Notes under the pieces: model-generated
What the model saw: the letters and a program-made list of their open reading frames with translations, nothing else
The model's database searches: none
Told to the model about the DNA's origin: nothing
Position numbers and translations under genes: made by a program
Shown here: positions 33,469-64,000 of the stretch, in pieces
Numbering within the stretch: position 1 is the first letter of the stretch
How the letters are laid out: the number at the start of each line of letters is the position of its first letter
Assembly: GCA_051362555.1 (NCBI GenBank)
Contig: CM120640.1
Coordinates: 53,732,788 to 53,796,787, forward strand
DNA: 64,000 nt
Direction: 5' to 3'
Origin: Lingula anatina
Taxonomy: Eukaryota; Animalia; Brachiopoda

Positions 33469-35367
33469 CTTTAAAATTAATTTGATATATTTATGAGAAC
33501 ATATGAGTTTGTCTAGAAAATAAAAACATCAAATTAAGAATGAGAATACAGTAAAATTCTATGTTGGACAATTCAAGGTTTGCACTATTATTTTATTCAT
33601 GTTTGATCCTGAACATTATTTACCCCTCATCTTTTTCATAATGAAAAACAAACAAAAGTTCTTGCGTGTCCTTTGTATGCATAACAAAACAAACAGAGAA
33701 ATACATGTATCCCCCAAGACCTGCAGTTTAAAAAACATTGTGTTAAGTTTGAACTATGCAAATTTTCCCCTATACGGGTAAATATATTGATGTGGCTTTT
33801 GTAAAATTGCTTACATTGCAGCTCTCTGAAAATCAATATGCCCTCAAGATTGGGGGCAAATAAGAATTCCGTTCGAAGTCAAAGCACTATATCGTAAAAG
33901 TATGTTAACTCGTTTTACTCATGATGTCGAAAACCTTTTTTCTCAAACAAGACAAACGACTTTGCAATTTATCAATATTGGTTATAATCATAGTATGTAT
34001 TTACCTTTTGCTTGCCAATTTTCTTCATGTTCTTCATACTATCTCCATAAACGTTCTAATCCTTTCACACAGACAAGTTTCTGCGCATTATCTGATAAAG
34101 GGAAGCCGTTGGAAGGTGCAAGTCCTATTACACTGCTGATTACCTAATTCTCTCCCAGAATTTACAGAAGTTCAAGAACTGAGGCATCGATAACGTGGTT
34201 AGCTGTCAGTAGATCAGGTCATTAAGAAACGGGTGAAATCAGCAACAACAAAATCTATCAACACTAACCGCTAAATCAACTGGCATGCCTTCTTTAAGTT
34301 GGTTTGAAAGCGTCCATGTATTTCTTGTCAGTAAGTTTATCCTTATCCCAGATGTCAATCTGCCGCTGTAAGAAACTTTCTATAATTGATCCGGGTTGAT
34401 TCGTACGGATAAATCTTTCAGAAATAAATCACCAGATTATGCCTTCATTACGTGCTGAGGGGTGTGATATAAAGGATGGGAAGCGTTTTAATGATAGAAA
34501 AACCAGCATAATTACGTTAATATCATTGGTCAGTGACGCACAAGAGCAAAATACATTAATGGGAATCACTCATATGTCACTACATGGTTTCAACGAATCT
34601 CAAAGGACTTGGTTAAAGCTGGGAGGTTTAATACGATCCGCAGCATTTGGCAGAAATTAGGCGGGTCAAACTTCGTATCTCGATATACAGCTTCTGTTTT
34701 CTCTGATCTACAGAGGTTTTTAAGATTAGCCTTCAGCCGCTTAAGTTGCCCTTCAGGACCCACGTCTGACTCAGATTAATGTGAGTGGGAATAGTGCGTT
34801 ATTACATCCATGTCAATAATGCACTTAAGAATTTGACAGACATAGAACTGGAATAGTGTCGTCTCCCTTCACTCGAGAACGATGTGAATATGCCTGCTTC
34901 TTAAAACCTTAGCCTACAACTGAGAAATAATATGAAAAGGTACTTCTCAGCGAAGAAAACGACAAGCAATTATTAAATAGCAGGCGTGCATGTATACTTG
35001 TACATTTTTTTCATTCGGTGATAAATTTGATTTCGTTGAAATGAAGAATCATTTCAAAAGATTTATAAAATTACTTGGGATTTATTTTATTTATTTTTTT
35101 TTTGGTCTACCACTTGAACCAGCCGGTTGTTTTGAAGAGTTCTACTCTGCAGTTAACATTTTTCGCACGGCGGGTATCCTAAAGTGAATAATCCTTCGAA
35201 ACTATTTCGGGGTTCATTTACTTTATCAGACCAAACAGTATTGGACGGGGATTTGGGAAGTCTTTCTGTTCAATGGCTATTTCCCCAGTGTTTGAAGGAT
35301 CACGGATTTTGGAAATGGAGGAGGAGGGCGAGGACCTTTAACAAAAGAAACGTTTTATTCGTCTACT

Positions 35368-35589
35368 CTTAGACCCCATTCCCAGAGATTAGATCGATCC
35401 AACTAGATCGACCTAACTTCCTGGGGGTTCACGCTAAATAGCTGTCAGCTGAGCGGACACGAAAGTTAATTACCCCCTTACAGCTTGTAGTAGGCGGGAC
35501 GGACATTTAAGCCGGATTATCTGACAGTAATCTAGTGAGACTCCCCACGGGGATAGATCGATCTAAAATCTATGGGAATGCGCCCTAAG
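35368..35589. mobile_element. Inverted-repeat element (probable MITE)
   Basis: cttagaccccattcccagagattagatcgatc pairs imperfectly with gatcgatctaaaatctatgggaatgcgccctaag. Confidence 0.55.
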
Positions 35590-37049
35590 TTCATTTGGAG
35601 TAACGGCAACAGAGGCTGGACTCCGGGGGACAAAGGCGTATTTGCGGTACATGCACGAAGTCGCACTGCGCAGTTCCTAGTAAAGTGCTGGAGACCCATG
35701 GGCATTCAAAGTCACACCTTAAAAATGTTAATTGGTGAAAAATGAAAAATTCACACAAACAAAATAATAATAAAAACTTCGACAAAAACAATCCATTCAG
35801 GCTGGTTATCGAACTCGAGCTGTTTTAACCCAATAAATACACTAAAATTGGTAAATAATAAGTAGCATCGTTTTCCTTTTATTGTACTTACTGTGGGAGT
35901 GCATTTTTGCTCAATTCTGATGTGATCACCGCCAGCTTGAATCGTAAACTACTGTTACTGTGGATATTCAGATAATGTAACTACTGTACATATATCAAAG
36001 GACTTTGAACACACGGAAATTCAGTCAAAAATGGAAATTGCCAATTTGTGAAAAAATGATAAATTCTCAAACAATCTCGGAACGGTGAATTAAGAAAAGA
36101 TTCGGCTGGTTCCAAACTCAAGCTATATCCGAGTCCTATGAATAATTTGAATTTGTGGACGAGTATCACCGTTAACAGTAACAACTGCAACAGACGAAGC
36201 TGATGGCTTTAAGTCCAAATAGTGAATGTCCTTAATATTTATAAAATAATACATAAAATAATAATAATAATAATGATGATGAAAATGTAAAAAATATAAT
36301 CAAAGAGATTTTTGTGAAATTTTGAGAAAATGGCTCATCCATTCAATTTCTATTTTCAGTTTCACTAGTTATTTTTTACATTTTATCCCTTCTATAAAAA
36401 TGGTAATAAATGAAATCATGCAAATTCTTAATATCTGAAAAAAGAACTTGTTCTAATGTCATCATTTCCATAGGGTTAAGGTGTATTACAACAAAAATTT
36501 TGAGCAATTTAAGAGTGCTAAGGCCTTTCTAATTTTAAAATCATACTTTTGCATCATAATGCATCCAACAGCAAAAATATACATACTGTTTTTCAATAAA
36601 TGAAAATATATAAATTTTGCGACCAATGGTTTATAAAGAAGAAGTTTACCACAACATTTTTTCAGAAGAATATATATTTATTTTTAAATAAAACCAAATA
36701 AAAGCAAAGAAATAGTTTGACTCACCAGCATTGATAAAAAGTAAGTGGTAAATTCGCTGTGGTAAATTAAGTGCAACTGCATCATTAAAATACTATAGGA
36801 AATAAAAATAGCATAAATCCTCAGCTTTATACTATAGCAGTAAGACCAGCTTTTTTAGAAAAAAAAGTTCATGATAAGAATGTTTTCATCATTATACAAA
36901 TCACATAAAACTCTAAATTCTGGCCAGCCAAAATAGCTTCAATATGTAAACACACATATTGCAAGAAGTCCACATTGCACCATTCTTCTTAAATCTTAGG
37001 CTTTGCCTCACCATGTCTCTCTCTCTCTCTCTCTGTCCACTGAATGCAA

Positions 37050-39445
37050 TCAAGATGCAGTGTTTTCTAAAACTTTCTTCTCAAGGGAAAAATCATACTG
37101 AAATGTAAAAATATCTCAAAAGTACTTTTGATGGACAATTATGTAAAGACAAATGATAACTGAATTACTCATTAGGATCCCCAAGTTTAAATTCCATCAA
37201 AAAAAATCTTTACAAATAGTTTTAACTTTCCCTTTAATTTGATTATGGAAAACAGATTGTCCTTTGCCAATGGTACAATGAATTGTCAACAATTTGGTTT
37301 GAGTAATTATACATGCTTGACCAGGATGATACTTTACCTTCATGTTTTCTAAGGAAAGTTTGCGATCTTCATAGTTCAATGGGAGTGTAATCTACAAGTG
37401 TTAACAAGATGATATTATATGATATTTTATGTATTAATAACATGTAATTATCAAATAACCTGTCCCCCATTCTCTATCTGCATTATAAGTTAAGCATGGC
37501 AAATGTTCTGACCATTTCAAGGATATTTTGATAAAAATATTTCTACCAGTAAAATGCCTCTTTATGACACTTCTCACCTTTTCAGTAATTATTCTGTATT
37601 TATCACTAAGCTGAAATTCTACTCCATCTAATTCATGATGGGCTGCTTTGCTGTTTGTTATTTGACCTGAAAGGAAGACATTACAAAGAAATGTAGCTAC
37701 ATGTATCTGAGTAGATAGAGTCTGAAACAATGGCTTCTGTGCTGTGTAATCTGCTGGGCATTTTAATGCTTCTACACAAAAGTAATGGGCTAATTTTTTA
37801 TATTTCTCACAAACCTGCTTGTATGAATTTGCTCTTTTAAGGCTCCTACTCTATGTGTTGGGAGTGCTGCTTCAACTCAGACTCATTTTTCTCCTATAAA
37901 TCAGAGAATGTTTGCCAAACTAAATTGTTTGTGGCAAATTTGCAGGAAACCTGCTGCAAACTTATCATTTTACTAAAGGATATAGCTAGGGCTTACTCTG
38001 CTCCATACTTAGCCTTTCACTATAGTAATCTATTCTAGTTACTAGAGTAGAGCTTAGGACACTATTTGGACAAGTAATAATACCAGGCCCGTAGCCAGGG
38101 GGGGTTCGGGGGGTTCGAAAGAACCACCCTTTTTGCTGGGAAAAGGTCCACTCTTGGTAAAATTTGATCTACAGGTATGTACATGAGAATTTTGTGGTAA
38201 AAGGTCCACTTTTTCAGAAAACGAACCACCCCTCTGAAATTGCTGGCTACGGGCCTGAATACTGTAATAAGCCTCCAGCCCTCTAGAGGAATTATTCAAC
38301 CATGTTGTTTTGTATAAGTCACCTGTAAGCACATCACAAGTCACCAGTCATTCACTAATGCATCTTCTCTACACCAATGTGAATTTGATTCCATTTTTTA
38401 AAACTTTCATAGGGCTTCAGGACCATGAGAGGTTTCTTAAAAAAATCACCATGTATGTTTGGCAAAGTAGACTATATACTAATATAGTTAACTATTTCAT
38501 AATTTGTTCAGAAAAACTCAACCTATTTTGATCGGGGTTTTGCATTATGGTAGAATAGTGTGGTATAGCAAATCCATGTCCAGAAATACACATGCCTCTT
38601 TTTTTTTATCAAATATTATTATTTATCATAATGTTTGTATGTATCAGTAGGGTCCATGGGTGATTGTACTGGGGTAGGTAGTGCTACCAGTAATTGTTAG
38701 TTTTTGCAAACCCCCATAAAGTGTCCCAGTGTCAGGTTTCTATATATATTTTGAATTGTATTCTGCATCTCAACTATTCCATCTTGTACAGAGACATGAC
38801 TAGGAACAGGTGGGAACTGATTCTGTAGGCAGTATTTTGATAATCTAGAAAAGGTTGAAAATGAAAAAGTTATAGTACAATCTTTAAAAATAAATATTTT
38901 AAAAAGTCAGTTGACAGCAGCAAGACAAAATATATGCAATGTAAAAGAACAAGGGCTTACTAGGAGTACAAGAGTTAATGCCAGATCCTGCCTAAACCAA
39001 AATTTTGACTGTGTGTTCATGCCCAGCTCAGACACTAACTGTGTGATAAACTTCAAGTGTCTAGGAAAGTATTTTGGGATTGAAAGTCAAGTTTTACACC
39101 TTTCATCTTTGGCTCATTCTTAAAAATGACGTCTGGGAACTTTGACAAAGTTAAGAGTGATGTAAAAGAACAACTTGAACGTCTTACTAGGAGTACGAGA
39201 AGCCTTTTAACTAACATGTCAGTATATGATAATTTGAGGAATTATATTCTTCTTCTTCTTATTATTATTTATTTTTATTTATTTATTTATTTATTTAATT
39301 ATTGTCAAAACACCTCTTTTGCTCTCCATCAGACTACTGGCCAAAAGTGCATAAGTGACGGTTGCGGGATTCACTTACTTTGTGGTGCATATCCATCTCC
39401 TTGGTGGCTAAAATTATCTGCGCTGTAATTTGACCTACGATACAT
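37050..39445 (-). CDS. 85-aa UMA-domain-only protein (UBAP1/UMAD1/MVB12-type ESCRT-I subunit); exons 39445-39379, 37666-37578, 37391-37338, 37097-37050
   Basis: Spliced product MYRRSNYSADNFSHQGDGYAPQSQITNSKAAHHELDGVEFQLSDKYRIITEK|ITLPLNYEDRKLSLENMK|YDFSLEKKVLENTAS*. Canonical splice sites (gtaagt, gtgaga, gtaaag; ttcag, tgtag, ttcag) with phases 1/0/0. LDGVxF...LP...YDFSLEKK is the UMA signature. Confidence 0.85.
38084..38257. mobile_element. MITE copy 2, TIR CAGGCCCGTAGCCAG, 5-bp TSD AATAC (hAT5-like), in intron 1 of the UMA-only gene
   Basis: aatac-CAGGCCCGTAGCCAG...CTGGCTACGGGCCTG-aatac; perfect 15-bp TIR. Confidence 0.9.
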
Positions 39446-39449
39446 CTTC

Positions 39450-39830
39450 AAAACGTAAAGGACAACTGTACATAAACTTTTTTTGGTTAAAAACAAACCA
39501 TTTGCGGATCTTTCAAATACGTCGTCAGCTCTCGTCCTAACCGGAAGTCAACACAGTATGAAAGTATCGAGTACACGAGAAAAATGGAGACATATCTTAA
39601 ATACATATGCGCTTTCTTTTTTTCTTTGGTGAATATTTTTGACAATCTTGAACTCATTTAGTGGTCGTGATATGAAGAATCCGAAGGATTTTTTATTGTA
39701 GGCCAATATTTTTCTGAATGACGTCAGATGCAGTTTCAACATGGCAGAATAATATTTTGGACCACAGGCCTATGAATCAGCACTGCTGTGTCATTTGTGT
39801 TTTCTGTCCTGGTATTAAAAAGGTAGTGGT
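39450..39830. promoter_or_regulatory. Bidirectional promoter between the UMA-only gene and UBAP1 (ETS/GABP CCGGAAGT 39541-39548; CRE TGACGTCA 39719-39726; YY1-like AACATGGC)
   Basis: Local CpG-retaining island between two divergent genes whose ATGs are 630 bp apart; contains motifs typical of housekeeping bidirectional promoters. Confidence 0.65.
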
Positions 39831-40074
39831 GCATTTTGATACACCGTGGACTTTCTTTATATAATTTTGATTGTTGTTGAGTTTACTGGTAATGTGTCTT
39901 ATTTATACTGATACCAAATATTCGAGGCAAAATTGCAATTATCTGTAGCTTAGTGACATCGACAGGCAAATGATGTTATCAGTATCAGTTTGATTGCATG
40001 ATTTACATCCATGTCATTTATTTGCTACATTTTTCAGAGTCACTAAGGTATTAAAATACGTAGCTGAAAGTATA

Positions 40075-43000
40075 ATGGAGTATATGCGGTCGAGCAGTGG
40101 TAAGTTCTGTTGTTGTTAGACATGGTAAGTTTGGGAATGTACATGTATACTTCTTTTCTGGTGACTGTTGTCGATCTTTTGCATCAACCGACCAAATTGT
40201 CATTTTTCTGTCACCTGTAGAAGAGTAGTTTGCACATTTGAGAACACTGTGTCATGTTTATGGTTCACTGTTCAAGTGTTGGTCAATATGGCAATTGGGC
40301 ATTGCATGGTATATTTCCTTGGTTAGTTCACGTCACTTTTGGACATTAGATTTCCAAGTGATTTCACTCATATGCCAGCATTGGTAAGTAAGCTTGTAGA
40401 CAAATCAAGCCCTTTATATTATTTTATGACTTATGCTTACTATCTGAATGAGCTAAGCATTTCATAGGCAGATGGTACTCTTTATATCCAAAGGTAGCTG
40501 AGTGGAACCCAACAAAAAAGGTGACAGTAAGCAGGAAACTGGGAACTTTATGTATATGAACCTTTGCTGCTATTAGTGAGTCCTACCTAATAAGACAATC
40601 AGCGGGAAAGGTTTATGCAAAGACACTTAGACCTATCGGTATTTCAAATATGATTTTTTTTATCAAAAAGTCAACAGTCATGGCCTACTCACTAATACCA
40701 GCTGATAAGGGTCTAAAAAATCAGCTTAGCCAACAGTTAGATTATTATTTTTTTTTTTCTTGTTAGTATAGCAAAAAAATAAGATCTTTAAATTTTTTGC
40801 TTTAAAACATGTATTTTTGCATTTATTGTACTTCTTTGTATTGTGACAGTAGTTGTCTTTGATTCTTAAGTATCATATCATATTGGCTGTGTGTTAGTTC
40901 AGTATAATACTATGACTGATCAGGAAAGAGGTGTCAGATGCTTGGTAGTAATTAGAACAATTTTGGAAGGGAATTTACTGTTTACAGTTTACCAGGTTCT
41001 ACAAAAATAATAAGGATATCATAAAGCAGACTTAAACATTTTTCAACTGCATGTAAATTTACTTTAAGAAATTTTTTCTTTAGTGTTAAAAATAATTTTA
41101 TTACAAAAAGTGAGAGAGAAATGAGTTGTAAATAAAAATCAATTGATGGTAAAGGTCTTTATGATCAACATTTCTTTTCACACAGTATCACACAGCAGCT
41201 CAAACCCCTATATGGATGGAGTGCCCTTTAAGATCTCAGAAGCCACCAAACCTCCGAGTAAGGTAAGTCATGTTAGCTAGACTTTGAGGGTCACTTCTAA
41301 AGACGGTCACTTCTAAAGTGTCACTTAAAGTGCATAAACCTTGTTTTTTTTAACTTATCTGAGGACAAATGGTACTTTTTGGTAATTTGAAAAACGGGTG
41401 CCATGAATTAATGTGGCCCAAAATAATCTGATTTATCACTTCGTGACCTCATCACCTGTCAATGATGTGATGGTAGAATTTGAAAAGAAAATGCTTTAAA
41501 AACTGTGGATTAAGGACTTTTTGATTTTCCCAAATTGTTACAAACATACTGTGAATGTCAGGAAAGAGGGTCAGAAGTTGGTTTGTTGAAGAAAAATGCC
41601 GTTTATCTGAGAATTTTTTTTTAATATGAGTTTGCAGGAAAATCTTACACTGGGCACCTTTAACTACAGGCAACACGTTGAAAATTTTAAAAAATTTAGA
41701 ACTATAATAATGGACGATAATACTGTGAAAAGTCTGGGTAACTTCCACAGAGGGATGTGACGAATAAAGGACATCATTCTGTTTTAGGTTTCACTTCCTC
41801 TGAGTTTCCAAATGCCAGATCCCAGGAACATTTTATCAGAAATGGTAAGTTTCTTAATTACATTATTGAATAGCAAGTTGACTGAAGAATGCCTCAAGGA
41901 TAGGCACAGGCAACTTATTGTCTTGAATTGTCTTGAATCTGATTTATTGTTAACATCAATTTTGCCATTGTAAACAAATTAACATCAGACTGTTTACCAG
42001 TACCACCTGAAATGTAAATAGTGGTGAAAGTATTTGTTTGAGGACTTGGTTAGTTGGTTTTATCAAATACTATTATAGGTCATGTTTCAATTGTATTTAT
42101 ATTAATAACAAGTACAGCATACAAAATAGTTGTGATGCATGACCTAATTTGACGTATTTGTTTGATTTCAGTATGATTTTGAAGTAGAACAAGCCGTTCT
42201 GAATTATGCAGAGGCACAGAGAGAAGCTGAAGAAGAATTGGAAATTTCTAGAGAGGAACAAATTAACCAACTGGAGAATAATGAGTATAATATGCATACA
42301 ACAGAAAGAGGAGAATGCCCAAACAGTTCTGACCATGTGGGACAGCCAGTAGAAAATGCTCACTTGAAACAAAATGGACATATTGGACACCCAGAGAAAG
42401 TCAATCCATTACTGGCCAACATAAGTAGTGATATTCTCACTCCTGTTCCCATTGCCAGGGACAGAGTGAACACAGATGAAAACAGAGATGCACAGAATGC
42501 TAGAATAAACCTAGCAGACTTTGAAAATGAACAGGACCCTTTTGATAACTTAACCCTGCAGACAATCAATGATAGAGAGGAGTTAAAGAATTTGTTTTCT
42601 GTGTCCTCTCAGGAAAACGACAACAGGCTAGTAGCCAATGGGATTGGTCATAATTGTGAAGAAAATACAAACAATTCAAATATTCACAGTCAAAACATGG
42701 GCAAGGAAATTAATGGTGGTGAGAATGTAGAAGTTGACTCTGTTGGAGTAACATTACAAACTTCCATAGATAGAGTTTCCTACAAACCGCATGTAACGCA
42801 AAAACCAAATATAAACACTGGTGTCCTAAGAAATGGGGGACCCGGAACTCATAAGGAAGTTTTAGTACAGAAAAGAAGAAGTTTGCCAGAAAGTAAAATT
42901 CCCAAGCTGCCTCCAATTGGTGCTATGCCAGCTTTGGTTAGTTCTCCACTCCCTCCTATTGGAGCGGGAAATAAAGTCTCAGACTGTGACTCTACACTCA

Positions 43001-45806
43001 CTAATTCAAACCTAAAATTTGGAGAACCTTCTGTGCTTTCTTCTTGGGATGGCAGTCGGTCAACTCAGACCTCGTATGGACGGTACAGCAGACATGACAG
43101 TGCAATTCATGAAAGCTTAAACCTGGAAAAATCAAACATAACTGCTAGCTTTAGTGCTAGCTCAGGACCATCATTTCAGGATTCCCGGAGGAGCTCACGC
43201 AGTACCCCAGACATATCCCAGGTAGAGAGGGCTCCATTAAGTCCTTATCTTACAACAAAGTCTCCCCCATCACGGGTGTCTTCTGGCCAGGTGAGCCAGG
43301 AAGGTGTGGTCTTGGTTGACAGTGTGTCATGCAGTGCTAGTGTTAGTATGCTTTCTTGCTTAACACCTTCAGTAAATAATGCTGGTGGGTGGGTGGGGGG
43401 GGGGGGGGTGGGTGGGTGGGGGGGGGGTGCTGGGTGATTATTTTAGGTCAGACAGAAGAATGAAGCATGCACAGTTATATAACAGGGCCCCCAGTTCACA
43501 CTACATTTGAACAAAACAAGATGGCTGTCTGGATAGTTAAACTGACTGAGAGAGTTAGGGTACTGAGACCCCATTCGGATATCTACACAACACTACTTGG
43601 GTTGGTCCAACTCTGAAGGCGATTCTTGTAATTTGCAATCAGTGGAATCGGCTTAAAAGCCTCAAGCAGCCAGGCAGTAATTTACCCGAGCGCACACAAA
43701 ATGTTCAACCTTCAATTTGGCCAGCCTTCAATTTGGAAGTAACTCGCTCGCGCTGCCAGTAATTACGCTGCGGGGTATTCAGGGCACAGACCGTGATCAC
43801 AAGATACCGCCAATAGATTTTTAGATTTTTAGAAAATAGATTTTTCATGTGAACGAACCCTTATTTGTACAGTCATCAGAAACGTGATGAGCAGAAACGT
43901 ATTTTAAAACAAATAGATTTTTTGGTCATTTGATTAAAATGATAATTTTGGTGGGTAAGCTAGACTTTTGTAGACTTCTTTGTCAATTAAAGCCCTTAAC
44001 AGATGCATGTTAATCCTAGTTTTAATAAGTTCATGAATGCTGGTTGAATACTGATGTATTAGGACTACCCTTGAGGTCAAAATCACATTTCAGTTTCAAC
44101 CTGTAAAAGTGTTTGTAGAAGATTTGTATTTAGTTGAATTTTTAACCCATCATGTTTTGATGTTTTAGAATGTCACGATCTTTCAAACTTTGACTTTCAC
44201 CCTCCACTTTTTGATGGAGGAAAACACTTTGCAAGTGTACCTTAGATTTGCCCTTTTGATTTTTTTCTTTGTATATGCTGTCATATAATCTATAAAAATA
44301 ACATCACAATTTGCACGACTTTATTAAAAATTATAACTGCCTTTATAACAAAGTGATGCATGCTGTTGCTGATAATACAATTTGTAGAATTTGGAGCGCA
44401 GCAACTTAGTACAAATTCTAGTTTTATGAAGTTCACAGTAACTTGAAACTTGGTGCACTGTACACATTAGTCTTGTCTCAAGTAGTGAAAAGTATAGAAA
44501 TATAGTTACAAAGATATCCCTTTCCATCCTGATTTTAGTTCTTATTCATGAGACATTCATGTGTCTAAATGATTTACAAATTACAAACCTGAAAATGACA
44601 ACATGCAAGTGAGGGCAAAACATACTAAGGGTGGATTTTTTCCTGGTTACACTCAAAGATAACTCTTGTGAACACCAAGAACGAAACACAATCACAAAAT
44701 TCAGTTCAATTAAATATGAAATCAGTGACAAGAAAAAGATGTTGAAATTTTTAATATGTTAACATGACATGAAACAATTTAAGGGAAAAAAATTAACCAT
44801 TCTTCCTTCTATTATGCCATACAGGCTTGGAACAGGTACTCTCCTCTTCCCAGTACTCCTCAGACGTCCAGTCCGCCACAGGCAGGTCCTGCCAGGGCCA
44901 CTCCACCTCCTAGACCAGCACCAAGAGAAAGAAATCCATATAGTAAACTGTCCAATGAATCCCAGAGGCTGGTTGACAGTGTTGTTAGTATGGGGTTTCC
45001 TCAAGCCAGGGTGGCAAGAGCTGTGGAAAAACTGGGAATGGATGATAAACAGGTGAGTTGTCAGGATGGTATGTTGACAGTCCTTCAGCTGAATTCTCAC
45101 TTACATGGGATAATGGTGACAATTTTTAATAACTTAGATGACAAAAACTGTAAAATATTTGAGTGCCTTTTTTTAAATTGATGGGGAATATTTGCATGTT
45201 TTAGGTGGTGGATCACTTGTGTCATCTTGGCAGTCTACTGGAGAAGGGATACACAGCTGCTGATGCAGAAGACGCATTATTCTCATTTCCAGAACAGGAT
45301 ACAAAGGTATGAACTGGATCAAAAAATAACACTTCTTTTCATAAATAGTTTAAGTAAAATATAATCTCATCTAAGTCTAATAATCAGACAGTGAAGAATA
45401 ATTCACTATTTGCAGTAGGTCAGTTTTTTCCTGTACTTCTTATAACACTGAGAACTCCCAGCATCTCACTTCATTTTATCTCAACATCTGTCTGAATCAA
45501 CCATGTAGTTTCTCTCTACTCAGAAAATCCTTTTGTCATTCATTAAGTAGGAGGTCCTGCAACATAGCATTCATTGTAAACATCCAAATAATTACCAATA
45601 GTTGTTCATTTAACAAATTAAAGCTGCTGAGGTTATTATGAAAAATCTTATGTATCTTTTTATTATTTGTATTTTAGGTTAAAGACTATCTTGAAATGTT
45701 AACCAACTTTAAACAGATGGGATTTCACCCTGCAAAAGTCAAGGAAGCTCTAGTAAAACATAATTGTGACAAGGATAAAGCTTTGGATCAACTAACACAG
45801 TTGTAG
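40075..45806 (+). CDS. UBAP1: Ubiquitin-associated protein 1 (ESCRT-I subunit), ~578 aa; exons 40075-40099, 41186-41262, 41788-41844, 42172-43290, 44825-45052, 45205-45306, 45678-45806
   Basis: N-terminal UMA domain PYMDGVPFKISE...VSLPLSF...YDFEVEQ; conserved central motif DFENEQDPFDNLTLQTINDREELKNL; C-terminal SOUBA (MGFPQARVARAVEKLG...EKGY...FKQMGFHPAKVKEALVKHNCDKDKALDQL). All introns are GT-AG and in phase. Confidence 0.93.
43384..43434 (+). repeat. G-rich tract (potential G-quadruplex) near the 5' end of UBAP1 intron 4
   Basis: ggtgggtgggtggggggggggggggtgggtgggtgggggggggg, ~95 nt after the donor at 43291. Confidence 0.7.
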
Positions 45807-47051
45807 TTGGACAGTATAGGAAATTTGTAAGCAGTCCCTAAAAGCAGAGATGCTTCTTTTTCAAAATTGCTACTGTAAAGGAATTTTGATACTTGCTTTT
45901 AGATGAAATTGAAATGGATACACAAAAAGTATGTATGTTCCCAAGGTTGAAGACAAGGTTTTTGTAGCAAAAATAATATTGACAGACTGATATTGATGAC
46001 CTTTTTATTTCATGTTAGTTGTGCATTACTGTACTTGAGAATTTCTATTTCTCTATTCATGGTTTTTTTTGTTACAACAGATCTTTTTCATGCCAATTAT
46101 TGGTTAACAACCCCTTAGATATACAATGACATAAAAATTTGGGTGATAGCTTTTTTCTTACATTTCATCAAGACCTGCAAACAGTTTTCTTATCATAGCT
46201 TCCCTGCTTACTTGTGCTCACATAGCTTGTCTTCGTATCATCCTCCTGTAGCCTGTCAAGCTGATAGTACCAAGTACTATTTACTGTACAAATTAATGTA
46301 TTGTTACTCTTTCTAATTTAGACTAAAAACTGATTCTGCTCACCTTGACAGCTTTTACTAGGTATATTAAATCTAGTGTACTTCTTCCATATTAAGTTTG
46401 TAGGTTTGTCCAGTTCTCTGCATTTTAATCAAGATGCCATGTGCATGTATGTTATTTTCTTCTTAAGAGTGATTTGTTTGTTCATATTGCATTGCATTGC
46501 ATTTTATTTTATTGTTGTAAACTGCAGGTTTTGAAGAAAAGGGATGGAAATTACAGTCACGTTAATGTCTTAAAAGGGGAGGTGACATATATATTATTTC
46601 AGATTTCCCTATTCTTGTTAAACATGCAGGATGTGCTATCTGTGATATATTTACAATACAGGGGTGCTTTTTGCAGATATACATCATGTATTGCCACTGT
46701 GACAATGTTTTAGGATAAATTACTAGTTTGTTGTTCCAGGCTACAAAGTGTGTAGTTTGTAGAAAATGGCGATCACCCGAACAAATTGATAACTTCACAG
46801 AGATTTGTCACCCTCATTTGTTATTTTAATGGTAGTCTTTAATAGATGTCTAACATGGTGCAAACAGGGTAAAAAAATTTTTGAATAGCAGAGATAAACA
46901 ATGAAGCACTTAAAATTTATAGTTTCCTGTGCACCAGCCTTCAATTGCTCATAATCCATGAAGGGTATATGCTTAGAAATCCTGGATATATTCCTTTTTT
47001 TTTTTTTTTTTTTTTGATAAATAGCATGTTTGGATTTGTGCAATCAAGCAG

Positions 47052-47120
47052 AATAAAGTCTGCATTTGAATAACATCAAGTGCAAATATACTGATATTGG
47101 TGTTGTATAGTGTGTTGTGT
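47052..47120 (+). terminator. Probable UBAP1 polyadenylation signal (AATAAA plus downstream GT-rich element)
   Basis: AATAAA at 47052-47057 followed by tggtgttgtatagtgtgttgtgtg about 40 nt later. Confidence 0.5.
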
Positions 47121-48529
47121 GACATTGCATGTTTAAATATCAGTTTTATTTATTTTAAAACTCCTGTCATTTTTCTGTATTTTATACAAGTTTTTCACAA
47201 CTAAATTTAATTTTGGCCAAGAAAAAGGAAATTTCCCAATTTTCTCTTCAGCCCATCGTACTGGACTTGGATGCTTCAGTGTACGATTCTATTTTAAAGA
47301 GAAGTGATTTTATTTAGATCAACACTCCCTCCTGACATTTTACATGGAAACAACATCAGGTTCTGCCATTTTAGGAGTTTATCATTTTTCAGGTCTTTGC
47401 AGGATATTTTAATATCTTAAAAGACAAAAATATGGCTTGGGGACATTTTAAATCACATTATATATATATATATATATTATACCCGTAAAAACGAGGACCT
47501 GATAATTTGTCCTCCTTTTTTTTTCATCCAACGATAACCCAGCTCTCTTCAACAATAATCTAACCAAAATGCATCTAAAGAGAAAGAAATCCATCACTTG
47601 TGCTGTTCATAGCCATAATCTCAAGAGCCATTTTTGGATAACATATTGGGCTTAAAAATGCCAGCTCCCTTGAGACTTTGTAGACATTTGTGTACCAGGA
47701 ATGAACCCCATGTGACACGCGGAAAATGTCCATGAAGAGATAATAAGCCATTTGCTGCGATTTCCTATGGACATTGATGTCTAGGTTTAATGACTAGATA
47801 CAGAATATATAAAACAACTATAAACCTGATATGAAGTGTATCCTGTTAGTGGCTAGACAAATAAACATCTACCTTACAAAATGTAGAATATGATAAATTA
47901 AGAAACTTGTCTTTAAAAACCTCTAACAAAGCAGGGTGCCATTACTCTTAGTTGTAGATGGCCCAGGAGCTCAAATATCTTTCTAGTGTTGTTAATATTG
48001 CAAACCTGCCCAGTGTCCACAATTTACTCAAGCAATCAGAGTTGTGGTACAATTGAACAGGAAATAAAATGACTCTTAGATTGTTTTATAATTTACAATT
48101 AAAGTGTCCCTTTAATATTTATTGCTGCAAAATATTTAACAATTATAAACTTCAGTATATGTTGACATATGCTTTTGAATAGACATCGTTAATTTTTAAT
48201 TTAACATAATTTGTTTCCAAAATACGCACATTTAAGAAAAAATTATTGGAAGCTTTGAATATTTTAGTTTCACAATTTAACAAGTTGTTATGTTCATAAA
48301 CTTCACTATACCAACTTCTTAATGGATGGTGTATAAATTAATATAGATGCTCAATCATCTACCCAAATAATTCCAGGCTTGCACTACTTAAGTGTACTTA
48401 TCCTACAAAAATCAATACCTGATTAATAAAGAAAACTGCTGTCTAATATCAGATTACAAGACATAGCACCTGAACTCACTATATTTTTCTTACTTTTGAC
48501 TTTTTAAAAAAATGTCACAAAAATGCTAT

Positions 48530-51500: not shown

Positions 51501-54500
51501 GAATGGACAAATAGTTTCAATTTTCCTTTATAATTTCCTTCTTTGCCTGATGATGAAACACACTTAAAAAGAGGCAAAAGGTAAATCTGACCTCTTTATT
51601 GCATAGGACAGCAAAAATGAATACATGTTTAAGAATAAAAACAGAAGTTAAATATTTTCAAACTTCAAGCAACATAGTCCTTAAAATGTCCACATATCTA
51701 ACTGCCACATATCTACATAGCAGATAACATTCTTGTTCATGCCATATTTTATACTGGATTACAAAAAATGAATGCATCACCATTTAAACATCAACATATA
51801 GCCAGATGTACAGTTGAATAACTATAAAATATTTCTGAATGATTATGTTCCTTTCTTAAAGCTCAATATTCTACAGATCTAAAGAAAAGGAAACTTACTT
51901 TCAGTATAACTTATACATTACGACATAACATCCAATGAAATTTAATTAACTACGATTAAAAATTGGTCAAAGATACAATATCAATATTGAATGTACTGAA
52001 AAAAAAAGGAAAGAAAAGGGTTTTACTGATGCTTTCCAATGAGTATTCAATTCTCTGATTATGATATATATATATGTACACTGTATGTATATAATACTGC
52101 CAGACAATGGCTAATAGATAATGGCTAAACAAACATCTTATATTTGGAAATACCCACCAAACATAATAAAAAAGGATGATAGTAAGATAAGTATGATTGT
52201 AACATCAATCCATTAATCTGGTATCAGCTGTTACATGTAATAATAAGCACATATAACAAATACATATAAATATATATTAAAATCTAGACCCTATTGAGTT
52301 ATCATCACTTTGCTGCCCTTCAGGATAGGGGCCACTCTGCCCTTGGTGGCTCATAGAAAACTCAGCCTGAACCTTTATTTCACTGCCACAAGAAAATATA
52401 CTATGCAGGCGTGCATTAAAATTTGTGTTCAACAGGCAGTACAGCACAAAATTCATAGTATAATTCAAAATTTCTAGTATGTTTGCTACTAGTCTGAAAG
52501 CAAAGTATTCTAATTTAAAGAGAGAACACTCGCCAAATATGCCTTTGTATATGATAGTGTGAGCAAATGTTACTGGTATACTCCCAATAAGGAAGGCAAA
52601 TACTACTGCAATCAACATGGCTGCAAGACGAACTTGAGTGCGCTGTTTCCGCATCTGAACAGTCTGTTGGATGACCATGGATTTTCTCTTTTTCTCCATT
52701 TTGTATACATGCTTGATGAGATACATGTTCAGGACAGCCAACAAAATAATAGGAATAAATTTGGTCAAAGCTGCTCGAATCCATGAAAGTACAAAAAATC
52801 CAGTGTCTAAACTAATTAGGGTTGGAGTTTTCACATTGCTGCTGTTTATATAATTTTGAAAGAAATACATCACATTAGCTGCCATTGAACACAAAACTAA
52901 AAGTCCAACAACTTTCCAGACAACAGAAGACTTGCATATCTTTTTGGACTTGACAGGAAATTTGATCATTATACACCTCTCAACAGCCACAGCAACTGTT
53001 ATCCATGCACTACAAGTGCCAAAAATGTTACCAAACGGCAGATAAATATAGACTTCATAAAATGCCCGTGTATACATGTCCTCCCCAACACAGTTGGTGC
53101 ACCGTACAAAAGCAATTGGTGCCACTATAAGACAGGTTAGTCCATCAGCAACAGCTAGGGCCTTTAGGTAGGCATACGATGAGCCTTTCAATGGGCTGTG
53201 CTTTCCACATAGTACAAATAAATTGAGAACATTCAAAATTACTCCAAATAAACTGATGACTGGAATGATGTATACATATCCAACATGTTCCATAACATCT
53301 ATTATCTGTTGTGTTTCATTTTCTATCATTTGGCAGTTTGATCCATATGTTTCATTTTCCATGTTAGAAATTTTTTTAATATTCCTTAGCAACAGATTGA
53401 CTTCCACAATTTTTTTTCAATGTGGTAAATAGATTAAATTTGCCATCAAGCTCAATATCTCACCACTATTCACAAAAACTCCCAACAGAATAAGATTTTG
53501 CCTTCCTGAATTTTCATAAAAGTCTCATGGTACAACAACACACTTCAAAGGGGTCTATGGTTATATGTCTTACTGGCTCTTTCTTCAGCCAAATGTACAG
53601 TTCAATGAAGTTTTTCAGCTTCAGTCCACTACAGATCAATTTTCCTTCTCAACAGCAAAAATTTTGATAAAAGTTAACTAGAGATTCAAATCATCCTTCT
53701 GATGCAATCCTTTTATATTCCCTCCTCTGAGTAACAACATTCAATTTAACTTCAATACATTATGCATAAATTTCCTCGCGTTAGTTCATGTGTATTTGTC
53801 ACATTAATCAAGTCATTTTGCTGCTGGTCTTCATGCAAAATGTTCAGCTGTTACTTTAAAAACATCCATTCAGTCAATGAAATGTCTCTAGTGAAAAAAC
53901 ATAAACATCAGGCATCAATAAATTATCATTTCAGTAAATTTGCCTTTATTTTGGTATTCATACAATAACAAATCCTGTTTTTCAAAAATGTGCCTATTCA
54001 AGGAAGTGCCATGATTCCTTGGAAAAAAACAATTTCCTTTTGAACAGTCTGTTTTTTTTTTCTCACAGAGTTACAAAACTTCCACATCTAAGGAAGCCTC
54101 ACATTTCCTCGAAAACATACATTTCCTGTTATAAGCCATACATCCACCTATCACCTTCCTGTAAACAGAAAGTCAAGCTTGATTAGTTTTCAAACCTTCA
54201 GTATAGTAGGTATTTCAGCTCCTAGTTCACAACTAAAGTATGAACTACTGCAGCCAATGAGTGTTTTCCTACCAAAATCAGCAATAGTATGTGATCTCTC
54301 ACAGGTTAGCAATAAAAATGTAGCTTGTCTTTAGAATCCATATATTATAAACTGGAGCACAGAGGGCTGACTGACTTCAGTGCTTGTTGAAGTAAGTTTA
54401 GCTGAAATAGTCTCTCTACAAAGGAACCACTGGCTATACCCAGAGTCAGTGTATGATTGTACCAGCATCCACCAGCATATATGAACAGCGTGTCATTCAC

Positions 54501-57500: not shown

Positions 57501-60500
57501 CCAGTGTAAGTCTGGATTTGCAAAGGTTTATTTAATTTAACCCAAGTTAAAGTAAAAACAAAGACTAAAAACTGCATATGAAATCATCTTCAATGTTTGA
57601 AGACAATGGGTACAGTAGTCATGGCAGTAAGACAACAGATTTGGTTTTTATGGTCAAAATATTTATGACATAGATACTTAATATTGCATAGTGAGAAGTA
57701 AAGTTGTCATATTAAGCATAATTTGAATCTACAAGTCCTTTAAATGACCTGTTTATTGATACCACAAATTATAATAGTACAAAGTTCATCATAAAAATAA
57801 ACACTGCCTTACACTAAACTAGTGTTATATATGAGAAATTTAAGCACAACAGTTTCCTGATATTTGTAAAACCTTTCCTACCCAGCTGAGCACCTGTTCA
57901 GTGCAATTATAACCAAGCTCTATGCTTGACCACCTGGCTAGGGGTGACTTAACAACTGACTCAAAATAGCATCAGGTGTTTGTAAAGATGTAACCAGTAT
58001 TATTCTGCTCAGAAATAACACTGATCATGGTGTAGGTTTTCAGATACAGGGCAGTTAGTCTCTTAGGCGTTTGTGATATATTGTGATATATTAAAAATTA
58101 TTACAGATCTTATCCCTTTATTAGTCTATATTCTTTTCTAGGGCACCTATACAGTAGGCAAATTCAAGGAAAAAAGAAAAAAAAAATATATATATATATA
58201 AAGAAACTAGGGAAGAGATCAGATAGTGCAGGCCTCTGCAACTCAATTCTCATTGCTAATTAGTTTCTGACCTAACCTGAAAATTTAATCAAAATCCATA
58301 AATAACTTTTTGAGTTAGGTGGTTAACTAACAAACCAACAAAGGTAAACATGGCGGAGGTAAAAAAATGTTACATTAATATATGGTATATAAAGTGCTTA
58401 CCTTAGCCACCTGAAACTTTTCCTGTAGTGCTTACATGTCCCAGTCTCAGGAAGAGGCTTGCCCTCTTGGATAGCTGGGTCCTTAACTGCTCTTGGTGCC
58501 TTCTTCACTACTATTACATTAGCACCATGAGTGTCTGAAATTAAATTTTGAATCTGGTTATCTGGATTCACATCTCTTCTATCAATCCCACCTACATTTC
58601 TTCTTTGCTTATATGACCAAGTAGAAACAAAGCCACAATAATACAAAATTTACGTTCCACAAAAATAAAAAGCATCATAACCAAAAATTATAGTCACTTG
58701 CTTATAAATCAAAAATAGATTTTTGTGCATGGTCATTCTGTTAGGTACAGACAGGAAAAAATTTGCTAAAAATCACATCTATCACAATTTGAATCTTCAT
58801 TGCAAGAAAAAATTTGATTGAGTAAATCTCATCCATCACAATGTGAAATCATTTAGTTGTCAGTTATAGCACAAACGGATGGTAAACCCTACAGACCAAA
58901 TTCAAAAAGAACAAATGAGACTAAATTGTAGTGCTCTTCAATAGTGTTAATTTGAAGTGTTTTCATATTTTACCTGTAATATTTGCTGGATGCAGTTGCT
59001 GAAATTTAACTGCCTCCACAGCCACCTTAAGTTTGCTGTAACAACCAAGGCATCGTGTATCACTCATTTGACCAGGGGCAAGACCCTATAAATAATCAAA
59101 AGGTCATTCCATCATAAAAAGATACTATGTAAAATGTTTAAAATAACATTCTTTTCACTTTTGGATATTTAAACAAATCTCATTGTTAACAAAAATATCA
59201 GAAGGAGAAAAAAATAGTGGTGCCTCACTGAAAGGTAAATATTGCATTACCTCTAACTTCATTTCTTTGGAACAGTTCATACAACCAACACTGAAAACAC
59301 AGTCAGCCAGGACAAGGTCAAACGCAACACATCCCTGTAGGTCAAGGTAACCAATAACAGAAGACATCTGATGTGCAAGGCTTGGGCGAAATGTCACATA
59401 CTGGCATGAAGCACACTTGGGGCAAGGAACTGCATTAAATTGATTCTGTGGTGTTACTATTTCAGCCAGATTCTTACACCTGCTACATTGAATGATAATC
59501 TTGATTTTCGTTCCCAACAAAGTGGCAGCATCCTCCAAAAGCTGAAGTTTTAGCAGACGGATCTCTGTTCCCTTCTTTACAGGATCCAAGTTACCTGTGC
59601 AGTAAATAAAATTTTTGTATGAGTGTTAAAGCATAATAAGTTCAGATATATATGTCTTACAAAACAATATGATTTTCTGAATAAAGTATATGAAATTTTT
59701 ATACCTCATCACGTTAGTTCTTATATCAATCCAATTTTTAAAAAAAATAATTGTTTCGGACAGAGGATATACAACAACAGTTCCATTTATAAAAATTAAG
59801 TTAAAAAGGGCATTTAGTGGAACTGAAATATTAAACAGACTAGCGTCATAAAAACACAATTTAAACTGTGTAATCTACCTTTTTCACTTTCTGCACCAAT
59901 ATCTTTATTTTCTTTATCCACATTACCATCACCACTGTCAACTTCCTGCTCAGAGACCTCATGTTCAGGGGACATATGGCTTGGTTCCTCCTCTCCAGGT
60001 TCTGGTTCTCTTGAAGTATGAATGTCTTGACTTTGTGATCCTTGCAGTTGAAAGAATGGGATGAATTCTAATCCTGCAGCTTTTGCTGCAAGCTGTCTCT
60101 TCAACTGAAAATTAAAATAAAGTGAAAAAGGATTTAAAAATTTTTTTTCATCTGATGAATTGAATACTGGCAAACCATTTGCTGATTAAATTTCAAACTT
60201 ATCCAGCTTATCACCTTTGTTCATTTTTGGATAATAAATTGGCTTGATAAATTAACATACTACAAGAAAGAGTTAAAGCATTAAGAAAGACAAAAACAAG
60301 ACAAAATGTTTATTTCTGACTTAGTTAAATATACCTTTTTGACTTAAAACGAGTATTGTATAATTTCAAGCTACTATCATATGTGTACCTGTTTCAACCC
60401 TTCTGTGAAAAATTCTTCCATTTTCTTGTCTAACCATTTCAGAAAGCGTCTCAACAGAAGCTCTGCCTTGCCTGCCTGTTGCAGTTCTTTCCAGGTTTCC

Positions 60501-61949
60501 TCAATCCAACCTTTGACATTATAACTCACATAACTGCAGAGAAAAAACATTGCCAAACTTCATAATTTGCAAGATTTCTGCTACAACATCAAGTTCAAAA
60601 TTATACCCAACATGGTCCACTCATTTAAAAATAGCAAACAAAGTGAGTATTCCAGCAAACATTCAATGTTCAGCAGTACTACTTGGGTCATCGTGTAAGT
60701 CATAATTATAATTTTTTTTCATTGATATATAAATTTACGTAAAACATGATATCTGTCATAAGCTCTTAACACATTTTTAACATAAATTATCAAGAAGCAT
60801 TAAACCTTGGGTTGTATTGAGTTTTCTTTCTTCTTCAGCAATTATATATTTAAACAGCAATCTGACAATTTTTAATGAAATATGTGAAATACCTTCTCAC
60901 AGTGTCTGGTAATGTTTGATCCTCGGGAAATTTAATGTTAAAAGGCTGAAATACAAATGTAAGATTTTTTTCACAACAATTTAGAAAATGAATATTTTTT
61001 TTTTCAAATAGAAAATATATACATGTAGTATTCCTGATCTGTTTATTTACAGCAACTGGATTTAATGTACACAAAAACTTATGTCCATGCAGTTACTTAC
61101 CACTTGGGGATATTTCAAAGGAAATGACACAGTAAGCTCCAATGACTTCACATCAAATGGCTTCAAAAAACAAAAGCAATATTTTTAAATGGAGCGTCAA
61201 TTAAAAGAACAAAGCTATAATAGGATTAGCTTTGTTTTAAATCTTATTGTTTTATAAAAATGCTTTATACAATTTACACAGTCCTCATATTTGACAGACA
61301 TTCCTCTGATCTTACTTATGATTATTAAAATCATGCACTTTATTTCTATTTTGTTAATATTATGAGAATTCTGTGGTTTTTGTGTCCTTGACATAAATTT
61401 TTTTAATGTTCCAAAATCAATCAAAAGTAACATTTTTTTAAAAATAGAGACTCCAGTTAAATCATATATATTATATTAGTTTTAGAAAAATACACCTTTA
61501 AAGAGTCGAAATTCTATCTGTAATGCAAAACGAATACCATGCAATGCCCTATTAACACATCAGTGTATACATATCCTACCCAGTCTGGATCACTAGCTGT
61601 GAACTCTATCCTGTATTCATCCACAGTCTCCCCCTCAGTTAACTCAACCTGGCTTCTGGAAACCCTTGGAAATCTTTTCTTTAAGTACAGAATTTCTGAG
61701 TTCCTGAGCTCCTCAATCTTTTCCAGAGACAGCTCAGACATCAAGTATACAAGTTTAGGTCTAGAAGGTCTGTATGGGGGACGAAATGATTCCTTCCTTG
61801 GTGGATTTCGTGACTGGACATTAACACGTGCTTCCTCCTTGATATCTGAAAATGAAAATATGAACCCATTCATTAACAGCACATTAGAAATACCAACATC
61901 TTAAAATGGTAAAATAACTTGATACTTGTTAATGCAAAAAAGTTGCCAC

Positions 61950-61993
<44 letters not shown>

Positions 61994-62646
61994 TGAAAAT
62001 TGTTATGGAGGGTATTAAATTCTATTCTGGTCTTAGCAAACAGGTTGTAGAACTTAAGTGGTAGATATTACCTGCATCCGCACTCTCCACATTTTCCTTC
62101 ATGACACCTTTTCTTTCCTGTTCACCACTTGACCTTTCATGGAAAAAGTAGCATCTGGATCCAAATCTGCACCGGCCAGTTCGTGCAAAGAACTTGCAGA
62201 TTTTATGCCCCTCTGCATTTTCTTTAGTAACTTTGGGCTTCAATTTGTGGGGTTTCTCTGTCTCACTGAAGACCTCTACTACTTGGGCAGTTTCTAATTC
62301 ACTTTGGTCAGTTCCTTCTGTGGCGTTGTCTATAGCTACCTCTTTCAAAGACTGGGAATCAACTTTTGAATCACTGCATTTTGCTCCAGTTGGGTCCTCT
62401 TCATCAGAAAATGGCTGACTACCACGTGTATGCTGGAATTTGCAGCGTTTACCAAATTTACACCATCGTTTATTGGCATAAAACTGACAAATTGATATCG
62501 GAGAAGGATCAGAAGCTTGGGACATAACAGAAACAATGCCACTCTTTTCCTGTTTTTGCACTAATTCCTGACGTGTGCTCATAAAACTATCTGTGAAAGT
62601 GCTGGCGATACTGCTCAACTCCACCTGGGCAATACTTGTAAAAGAC
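48530..62646 (-). CDS. CCCH zinc-finger x2 / RWD-like / Cys-rich / CHY zinc-finger protein (~726 aa from the ATG at 62582; resembles the S. pombe C18H10.09-like family); exons 62646-62072, 61845-61580, 61160-61101, 60945-60893, 60533-60389, 60104-59879, 59594-59251, 59085-58974, 58534-58402, 49769-49655, 49348-49239, 48635-48530
   Basis: Two CCCH fingers (CQFYANKRWCKFGKRCKFQH; CKFFARTGRCRFGSRCYFFH), SDPDWPFDV...FPLKYP (RWD-like), several CxxC pairs, and a CHY finger GTCKHYRKSFRWLRFPCCGKCYPCDVCHD...CGFC...CISC followed by HWEGGKGCRDK. Twelve phase-compatible GT-AG exons; true start uncertain. Confidence 0.9.
52277..53362 (-). CDS. Intronless class A (rhodopsin-like) GPCR, FMRFamide/sex-peptide-receptor-like orphan, 361 aa, nested in an intron of the CHY gene
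   Basis: ATG at 53362 (MENETYGSNC, N-glycosylation sites). Seven hydrophobic segments: TM1 GVILNVLN, TM2 LAVAD, TM3 AVERC, TM5 FIP, TM6 FLIGSIP, TM7 NYTMNFVLYC. Confidence 0.93.
   Translation of the reverse strand: MENETYGSNCQMIENETQQIIDVMEHVGYVYIIPVISLFGVILNVLNLFVLCGKHSPLKGSSYAYLKALAVADGLTCLIVAPIAFVRCTNCVGEDMYTRAFYEVYIYLPFGNIFGTCSAWITVAVAVERCIMIKFPVKSKKICKSSVVWKVVGLLVLCSMAANVMYFFQNYINSSNVKTPTLISLDTGFFVLSWIRAALTKFIPIILLAVLNMYLIKHVYKMEKKRKSMVIQQTVQMRKQRTQVRLAAMLIAVVFAFLIGSIPVTFAHTIIYKGIFGECSLFKLEYFAFRLVANILEILNYTMNFVLYCLLNTNFNARLHSIFSCGSEIKVQAEFSMSHQGQSGPYPEGQQSDDNSIGSRF
61949..61993. repeat. (TA)n microsatellite followed by a T run
   Basis: Direct inspection. Confidence 0.85.
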
Positions 62647-64000
62647 CTAAAATACAAGTAAAATAAATAGTTGAAGCTTTCAAATATATGTCATGTGTCA
62701 AATTAAACGTGCATCATGACTTAAAACTTAATAAAAACATGTAAATTTACAATGAGATATGTGTACATATCTTCTTTGCTAAATCTTTTCACTGATTTTC
62801 ATTGAACAGACAAATTCTTATGCCACATTCCTCTCATATTGTGCCTTGATATCGTTTACCTATTCCTTTTTAATAACAGGCAAAGTAAAAGACAAATAAA
62901 TTGAAACAATCGTTGCCTTTGATTAAAGAGACTTTCGATTCTTCAAATGTCTGGTAAAGAACTAAGCCTAGTATGTACTGCTGTTGAAAGTTTTGTACTT
63001 CCACAAAAGTGGAGTGGGTATGGTTAATCAAAACTTACACCTTTATAGACAAGCGCACTGAGATTGCACAAACGCTGCTCAGCTTACTTACTGTGGTGCA
63101 ATCACTTCAAAACCGGATGTGCCGTGCAACTCAGATATTTATCTTGCGGATATAATTCCGCCGCATTAAGTCACGCTTGCATAGAGTGGACAGATTTTAA
63201 TGGAGTAAATAACTGGTTGCATGGACTGTATGAAACACAAATGATATAATAATAATAATTTGTTCATGGCATAAAGAGGTTAAGCATCTTTGAAGAAGAA
63301 AAATTATAAAGGTGAAGGTCATTCTCAGAATATACATGTATCACTCCCCCCATATGCACGTTTCTGTCTAAAGTCATGAGGTACGCACAGTTGCAGAAAC
63401 TCCTTGGTTATACACTGTCGAAATGCAGCCCCAGACTTCAGAGATACAACAGATTTACTGTAGTTCACTTCAGATGGTACAGTGATCAACCGGACGCAGC
63501 AAAACCTCACTTCAACATTGGTAAAAACATTAGTGCAGTAGATAACGTATTTTAAAGAAGCTTTAGATATACGCCTGTGCATCAGGGAAAAATCTGAAAA
63601 AATCAAACATAGTTTGCAATCTGAGCACTAAATATTTTTAAGAGCATGCCTGTAACATCAATATAAATATAGTTTATATAATTTTAGTGCTTTGGAAAGG
63701 AGCAGCCTTTATGACTCAAAAAGATCTTTACATATAAACCTTCCTTACAATTATGTACTGCTCTGATTAAAGGTGGAATTCATATACCATTACCAGATTT
63801 CTATCTACTAGGCATGCTATATTATATGAACATATGCACTTCTCAAGGCTACTGCTTCATTCTTGCTGTAAATATGACTTCCAAAGTTCTGTAGACAAAT
63901 ACACATTAATATAGTTAGTCATATAAACAATTATTGCAACTAGCATTGTGTGGATTAAAGATGGCATTGATAAATCATAACCAGACAAATCGGCAATATG

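Follow-up and report, generated by a model that had tools for sequence, protein, structure and literature searches.

A spliced gene predicted to encode a lone UMA domain lies back-to-back with UBAP1 in Lingula anatina

A divergent gene pair at the UBAP1 locus

[quoted passage not shown] A first-pass annotation, made from the DNA letters alone, had proposed that four small exons here splice to an 85-residue protein, and its exons, phases (1/0/0) and splice sites all proved as described: four exons with GT-AG introns throughout give 85 codons and a stop. Exon 1 (39379..39547) has its 5' end near 39547, where 12 molecule ends were found in run X1 and 16 in run X2, and carries the ATG at 39445 and 67 nt of coding sequence (39445-39379) up to a phase-1 donor. 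Exon 2 (37578..37666; 89 nt, phase 0) holds the N-terminal part of the UMA domain (UMA-N) with its docking motif, in which VEF replaces VPF. Exon 3 (37338..37391; 54 nt) is in phase 0 at both ends, and the coding part of exon 4 (37050..37097; 48 nt) supplies the C-terminal part (UMA-C), with its Y-x-F-x-x-E motif, and the TGA stop. The 3' untranslated region (UTR; 36660..37049) was placed by read depth, its end being approximate, with an AATAAA at 36682.

In the predicted protein, the docking motif keeps Val38 and Phe40, with Glu39 in place of Pro, a substitution on which the first-pass annotation was silent, and Y71, F73 and E76 form the C-terminal motif with its conserved Glu. The stop codon (37052-37050) follows residue 85, nine residues past that Glu. 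The description of the product as essentially one UMA domain holds for the domain itself, but about 33 N-terminal residues lie outside it. The helix that follows UMA in UBAP1, the central region and the ubiquitin-binding SOUBA domain are all absent; SOUBA is encoded only by the plus-strand gene, in agreement with the proposal of a SOUBA-less product. A Pfam scan of exon 2 alone gave no match, and Rfam gave none within 35000-48000.

RNA evidence came from raw-read runs of the same species label, of which eight of nine were mapped (all except X3), with 6-30% of each. Spliced reads at 39379/37666, 37578/37391 and 37338/37097, the junctions proposed for checking, were present in 8/8 mapped runs (run X6 weakly, with two reads each), confirming that the short gene is real, spliced and expressed. 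Read counts at the three junctions in turn were 38/5/31/8, 18/6/36/14 and 28/13/32/8 in runs X1/X4/X7/X5, and 22/14/84/2, 13/15/31/2 and 19/15/34/2 in runs X8/X9/X2/X6. Short-gene junction reads fell on the first-mate-plus side in five stranded runs, and UBAP1 junction reads, checked in three stranded runs, fell on the opposite strand. Two other accounts of the signal were discarded: genomic DNA or UBAP1 antisense noise is ruled out because the reads are spliced and strand-specific, and a chance open reading frame is ruled out by the junction reads together with UMA homology. Depth along the short gene was uneven in X1 and X2, where exon 1 depth (140-190) and last-junction reads (84 in X2) far exceeded middle-junction counts (18-34), reflecting either library bias or an unseen isoform.

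The two genes are transcribed head-to-head, as had been claimed, with their ATGs 630 bp apart (39445 and 40075) and their divergent 5' ends 150-250 bp apart. UBAP1 reads start in the bin 39700-39794 and depth is zero over 39605-39699; the gap between the transcripts (39548..39699) is likely a promoter common to both genes. It is flanked by CCGGAA at 39541, which we take to be ETS-like, and by a second motif at 39719, presumably a cAMP response element, both being consensus matches only. Summed over three junctions (the first three coding junctions for UBAP1), short-gene and UBAP1 reads came to 84/28, 24/17, 99/41 and 30/52 in four runs. The two mRNAs are thus roughly equal in abundance, with a ratio of 0.6-3.0, and this approximately fivefold spread does not bear out tight co-regulation; the first-pass annotation had suggested a co-regulated pair.

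The plus-strand neighbour is the UBAP1 gene of Lingula anatina, its large exon being identical to the RefSeq protein, and its seven coding exons encode 555 or 595 residues depending on donor choice. A 5'-UTR exon (39700..39822, start within 39700-39794) and a 5'-UTR intron (39823-40037) precede the first three coding-region introns. The N-terminus and most of UMA lie in exons at 40038-40099 (ATG 40075), 41186-41262 and 41788-41844, which are joined by RNA junctions and identical to the RefSeq model P0001. The large exon (42172..43341) encodes UMA-C, the following helix and the central region; its donors at 43221 and 43341 are used at similar levels, and RefSeq also has 578-residue forms. The last three coding exons (44825-45052, 45205-45306 and 45678-45806), supported by junction reads, encode SOUBA (PF21267, UBAP1 UBA2; 35 bits). 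RefSeq holds two near-identical Lingula UBAP1 models, P0001 and P0066, which differ at 5/555 residues and both lie on a 1,501,220-base contig; the pair is possibly an uncollapsed haplotype.

Intron 1 of the short gene contains, outside the mRNA, a repeat resembling a miniature inverted-repeat transposable element (38084..38257), whose ends are inverted repeats flanked by a 5-bp duplication and at which reads from many other copies pile up. A second repeat (43732-43855) lies in a UBAP1 intron, and the RNA reads over it have loose ends and opposite-strand joints. Elsewhere in the window, a single long open reading frame at 52277-53416 (minus strand) encodes a rhodopsin-type G-protein-coupled receptor (Srw 74 bits, 7tm_1 55 bits), and a multi-exon gene at 59155-62690 (minus strand) encodes two CCCH zinc fingers followed by a Cys-rich segment.

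UMA homology, introns and parentage

The assignment of the short protein to the UMA domain stands, with homology over both conserved segments. Aligned with Lingula UBAP1, it is identical at 21/59 positions, a score reached by 0/1000 shuffles. Three vertebrate-type UBAP1s match it at least as well, 0/1000 shuffles reaching any of the scores, and a profile of their N-termini scores it at 29 bits. PDB searches with two UMA alignments returned 0 matches and 4 chance-level matches, and the ESM Atlas gave no usable match for UBAP1 1-75 or for the gastropod short protein P0065.

The first three introns of the two genes had been reported to occupy identical positions. This is correct for introns 2 and 3, which interrupt the motifs in the same places. 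For intron 1 only the phase agrees: the distance to the conserved Val downstream is 15 residues as against 12, in a stretch that cannot be aligned. The 1/0/0 pattern is also present in UBAP1 of loci L006 and L009, and the junctions of the first two exons recur in L001; it is therefore ancestral, and neither dates the event nor by itself names the parent. As a mark of duplication, the shared introns show the phases claimed, but the pattern is the old UBAP1 one. UMA introns of MVB12B also have phases 1, 0, 0, and human UMAD1 carries its UMA within one exon. Among the other UBAP1 loci surveyed, the genes of L007, L010, L011, L012 and L014 do without the intron in the middle of UMA, and in several of them VPF has another residue in place of its Pro or Phe. 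L015 contains an isolated UMA-N-like piece (3072-3115, plus strand; 13.9 bits), which lies 1.8 kb downstream of the UBAP1 UMA exon of that locus and reads into a stop.

Exon 3 of the short gene begins with TLPL, a motif of exon 3 in UBAP1, and a T-I/L-G-R-x-G stretch upstream of UMA is common to two gastropod short proteins and Aplysia UBAP1. Together with adjacency, these features of the sequences point to UBAP1 parentage. No exon-scale DNA similarity was found between the short gene and UBAP1, the longest blastn match being 33 nt, at the last acceptor; a recent duplication is ruled out on this ground. Because no exon-scale similarity is left, the split is old, which upholds the old origin proposed for the pair.

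Short look-alikes in other phyla

The expectation that annotation would miss the gene was borne out: no Lingula short protein appeared in a word search with exon 2 (proteins of 75-242 residues), a profile search (54 matches among 1693 candidates) or a HMMER search (best 150 of 168 matches). Nor is the gene an oddity of one genome, since short look-alikes with a whole UMA were found in three gastropods, Bradybaena similaris (88 aa), Elysia marginata (91 aa) and Elysia crispata (141 aa), and in the nemertean Lineus longissimus (103 aa). These were picked by eye as not being exon read-throughs; most other short matches were dropped as single-exon read-throughs or truncated UBAP1s. UniRef names both Elysia proteins only 'UMA domain-containing'. 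The idea that P0065 and P0110 are fragments of gastropod UBAP1 models was rejected, as they differ from Aplysia UBAP1 throughout UMA (the UBAP1s of their own species were not compared). The Lineus protein has a His-rich lead-in and the Pro-to-Glu change in common with Lingula, and two gastropod short proteins keep VPF.

The short proteins were compared with 101 long UBAP1-type proteins of at least 250 residues, in which UBA-type domains were found in 24 of the 28 scanned. Three marks are common to all five: an acidic residue before L-D/N-G (5/5 short, 0/101 long), a proline-free linker (5/5, against at least one proline in 98/101 long proteins) and N/Q near the end (5/5 and 6/101). In a leave-one-out profile built from the other four, the Lingula protein ranks 2 of 102. 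In both best trees a single branch sets the five short proteins apart (support SH-aLRT 76, from the Shimodaira-Hasegawa-like approximate likelihood ratio test; 64/44), and Lingula UBAP1 groups with mollusc-type UBAP1s (92/73), apart from its short neighbour. On this evidence the short proteins look like an old lophotrochozoan UMA-only subfamily, which we regard as probable.

An alternative placement would assign the short family to the UMAD1 or MVB12 lineage, its members being UMAD1 orthologues whose N-terminus is short, or else MVB12s that have lost the MABP domain. The product would then be a positive subunit, serving ESCRT-I in tasks independent of ubiquitin, for instance abscission. The terminal position of UMA, with a stop nine residues past the Glu, fits the layout of human UMAD1 (PMC10445733), conservation across Metazoa has been described for the UMAD1 (tcag7.903) group (PMC2881412), and the linker prolines of UBAP1 are absent from the short proteins. 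All four look-alikes also match the UMA end of the MVB12 family PF10240 (positions 198-253) at 13-23 bits, one of them above the cut-off, and Lingula UBAP1 is unmatched. These matches cover only the last 50-56 of the 253 positions. However, 8/28 long UBAP1-type proteins match PF10240 as well, at 9-19 bits, so what the look-alikes match is UMA signal of a generic kind. UBAP1 is favoured instead by the location of the short gene next to it, by the TLPL at the head of exon 3 and by the stretch found upstream of UMA in gastropods, and no N-terminal extension is common to the three phyla, whereas the UMAD1 group has a conserved one of its own. We therefore consider this placement unlikely.

It is also distinctly unlikely, in our assessment, that UMA-only genes arose repeatedly from UBAP1, in a brachiopod-nemertean line and in gastropods, with the three marks converging after loss of the rest of the protein and the function being the same as under a single origin. 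Approximately unbiased (AU) tests do not reject a tree joining gastropod short proteins to heterobranch-type UBAP1 (p 0.33) and one joining the Lingula short protein to Lingula UBAP1 (p 0.13). YTF and the upstream stretch occur in gastropods both in the short proteins and in UBAP1. Upstream of UBAP1 at locus L009, where that gene is mollusc-like by motif, lie an MFS transporter gene and a Calx-beta gene, and no UMA partner is present. Against repeated origin stand the grouping of the five short proteins in both best trees, the marks common to 5/5 of them, and the position of Lingula UBAP1 away from its neighbour.

Predicted ESCRT-I docking and known fourth subunits

Published work on human proteins indicates how a UMA domain enters ESCRT-I. 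In the headpiece structure, a TSG101-VPS37 pocket is filled by the Val and Phe of VPF, whose Pro packs on TSG101 Tyr325 (bioRxiv 2020.01.31.927327), and changing VPF to AAA abolishes binding or entry in MVB12A and UMAD1 (bioRxiv 2020.01.31.927327; PMC10445733). A stable ESCRT-I assembles with human UBAP1 1-68, which acts as a dominant negative (PMC3314968). The helix following UMA confines UBAP1 to VPS37A as its partner, and HD-PTP is bound by the central region (PMC4007767); loss of UMAD1 leads to more UBAP1 in ESCRT-I (PMC10445733). Truncations in human spastic paraplegia 80 (SPG80) retain UMA and lose ubiquitin binding (PMC9344137, PMC8244911).

The central motif residue is Pro in 77 and Glu in 4 of the 101 long proteins, the latter including the SOUBA-bearing P0124. 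Because the short protein keeps Val38 and Phe40 and the Pro is not invariant, its docking into ESCRT-I is likely, judged from the motif. Selection on the reading frame is suggested by runs X7-X9, a diverged read set with near-fixed differences from the window: these list seven differences in the short coding sequence, four synonymous and three nonsynonymous, with no listed indel, and nine in the 5' UTR. The diverged reads thus keep the frame, as the first-pass annotation would have it, at a nonsynonymous-to-synonymous ratio (pN/pS) of 0.18 (Fisher p 0.025), a value drawn from RNA reads alone and from seven coding differences, which are small numbers. None of the seven (0/7) falls in UMA residues 35-80.

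It is conceivable that VEF breaks docking and the product is a remnant no longer binding ESCRT-I, or that the RNA arises by divergent transcription from the promoter and its peptide does something else or nothing. The loss of binding on VPF-to-AAA replacement (bioRxiv 2020.01.31.927327; PMC10445733), evidence that stops at the level of RNA and sequence, and a pN/pS from seven differences are compatible with this account. Opposed to it are the retention of Val, Phe, Tyr, Phe and Glu, the recurrence of the central Glu in Lineus and in the 4/101 long proteins, the intact VPF of two gastropod members, and the survival of the short frame in three phyla; we judge it improbable.

Taken together, the evidence leads us to lean slightly towards a reading in which the gene back-to-back with UBAP1 encodes a lone UBAP1-type UMA, which likely enters ESCRT-I in the place of the fourth subunit, as an alternative one without ubiquitin binding. 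Such a subunit would likely lack HD-PTP binding as well. The gene would stem from an old event, early in lophotrochozoans, in which part of UBAP1 was duplicated in inverted orientation. The Val and Phe of its product would fill the TSG101-VPS37 pocket, and a protein without the post-UMA helix may pair less selectively with VPS37 subunits. The more of it there is, the more UBAP1 or MVB12 it would displace, either as a decoy, the role offered in the first-pass annotation, or as a working alternative. Since fourth subunits are mutually exclusive, the short:UBAP1 level would tune the share of ESCRT-I that carries SOUBA and the HD-PTP-binding region.

Several observations weigh against this reading. 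The central Pro of VPF is Glu in the Lingula short protein, and the gene is known from RNA and sequence, its 85-residue product being predicted. Synonymous differences are likewise absent from the UMA core (approximately 26 sites); its stasis is therefore in part not amino-acid-specific. Support for the short clade is weak (76 and 64/44), the trees were built from 62-63 columns without MVB12 or UMAD1 sequences, and the AU tests do not reject separate origins. No opposite-strand UMA exon rose above background at 16 other UBAP1 loci, of which only L007 and L013 (4.7 kb) and L009 (9.5 kb) extend more than 3.5 kb upstream.

A broader proposal, which we put forward tentatively and regard as doubtful, is that these genes form an undescribed, phylum-spanning UMA-only family that split from UBAP1 before brachiopods, nemerteans and molluscs parted, stayed on the UBAP1 promoter, and was selected as a competitor limiting ubiquitin-reading ESCRT-I, a natural counterpart of the SPG80 truncations. 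The 2010 paper on UMA names MVB12, UBAP1, the LOC390595 group and the tcag7.903 group (PMC2881412); its text names no UMA-only UBAP1 paralogue, and its figures or supplement may list solo UMA proteins. A literature search by title and start of abstract found no description of the short gene or its family, which would then be a small gene family that annotation missed or left unnamed. Known fourth subunits each add a module to ESCRT-I, namely MABP, SOUBA or a conserved extension. A conserved, near-bare docking subunit would test what mere occupancy of the seat does and whether competition tunes ubiquitin-dependent sorting. In human disease, pieces of UBAP1 without SOUBA are reported to be dominant-negative, and such a subunit would be their natural, tolerated counterpart.

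Among known systems, UBAP1 (UMA, helix, HD-PTP region and SOUBA; partner VPS37A) is adjacent and divergent to the short gene and resembles it in UMA type and in the phases of three coding introns. The short protein differs in lacking the post-UMA helix, central region, SOUBA and linker prolines, in reading VEF for VPF, and in its length of 85 rather than 555-595 residues. UMAD1 (the tcag7.903 group; VPS37C/B, abscission) is likewise small, with a C-terminal UMA and no ubiquitin-binding domain, and competes with UBAP1 in human cells (PMC10445733); it sets a precedent for a UMA subunit that is small and does not bind ubiquitin. The short protein has 37 residues before the motif as against 88 in UMAD1, and no N-terminal extension that recurs across Lingula, Lineus and gastropods. 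MVB12A/B (MABP and UMA; PF10240) have the C-terminal UMA in common with the short protein, and four look-alikes match PF10240 weakly; MABP is absent from the short protein, in which only 37 residues precede the motif, and true UBAP1s match PF10240 too. The human UBAP1 1-68 and 1-92 constructs and the SPG80 truncations likewise keep UMA, lose SOUBA and are reported to reside in ESCRT-I without binding ubiquitinated cargo (PMC3314968, PMC9344137, PMC8244911). Those, however, are engineered or disease alleles of one gene, whereas the short gene is a separate, conserved gene with a transcript of its own.

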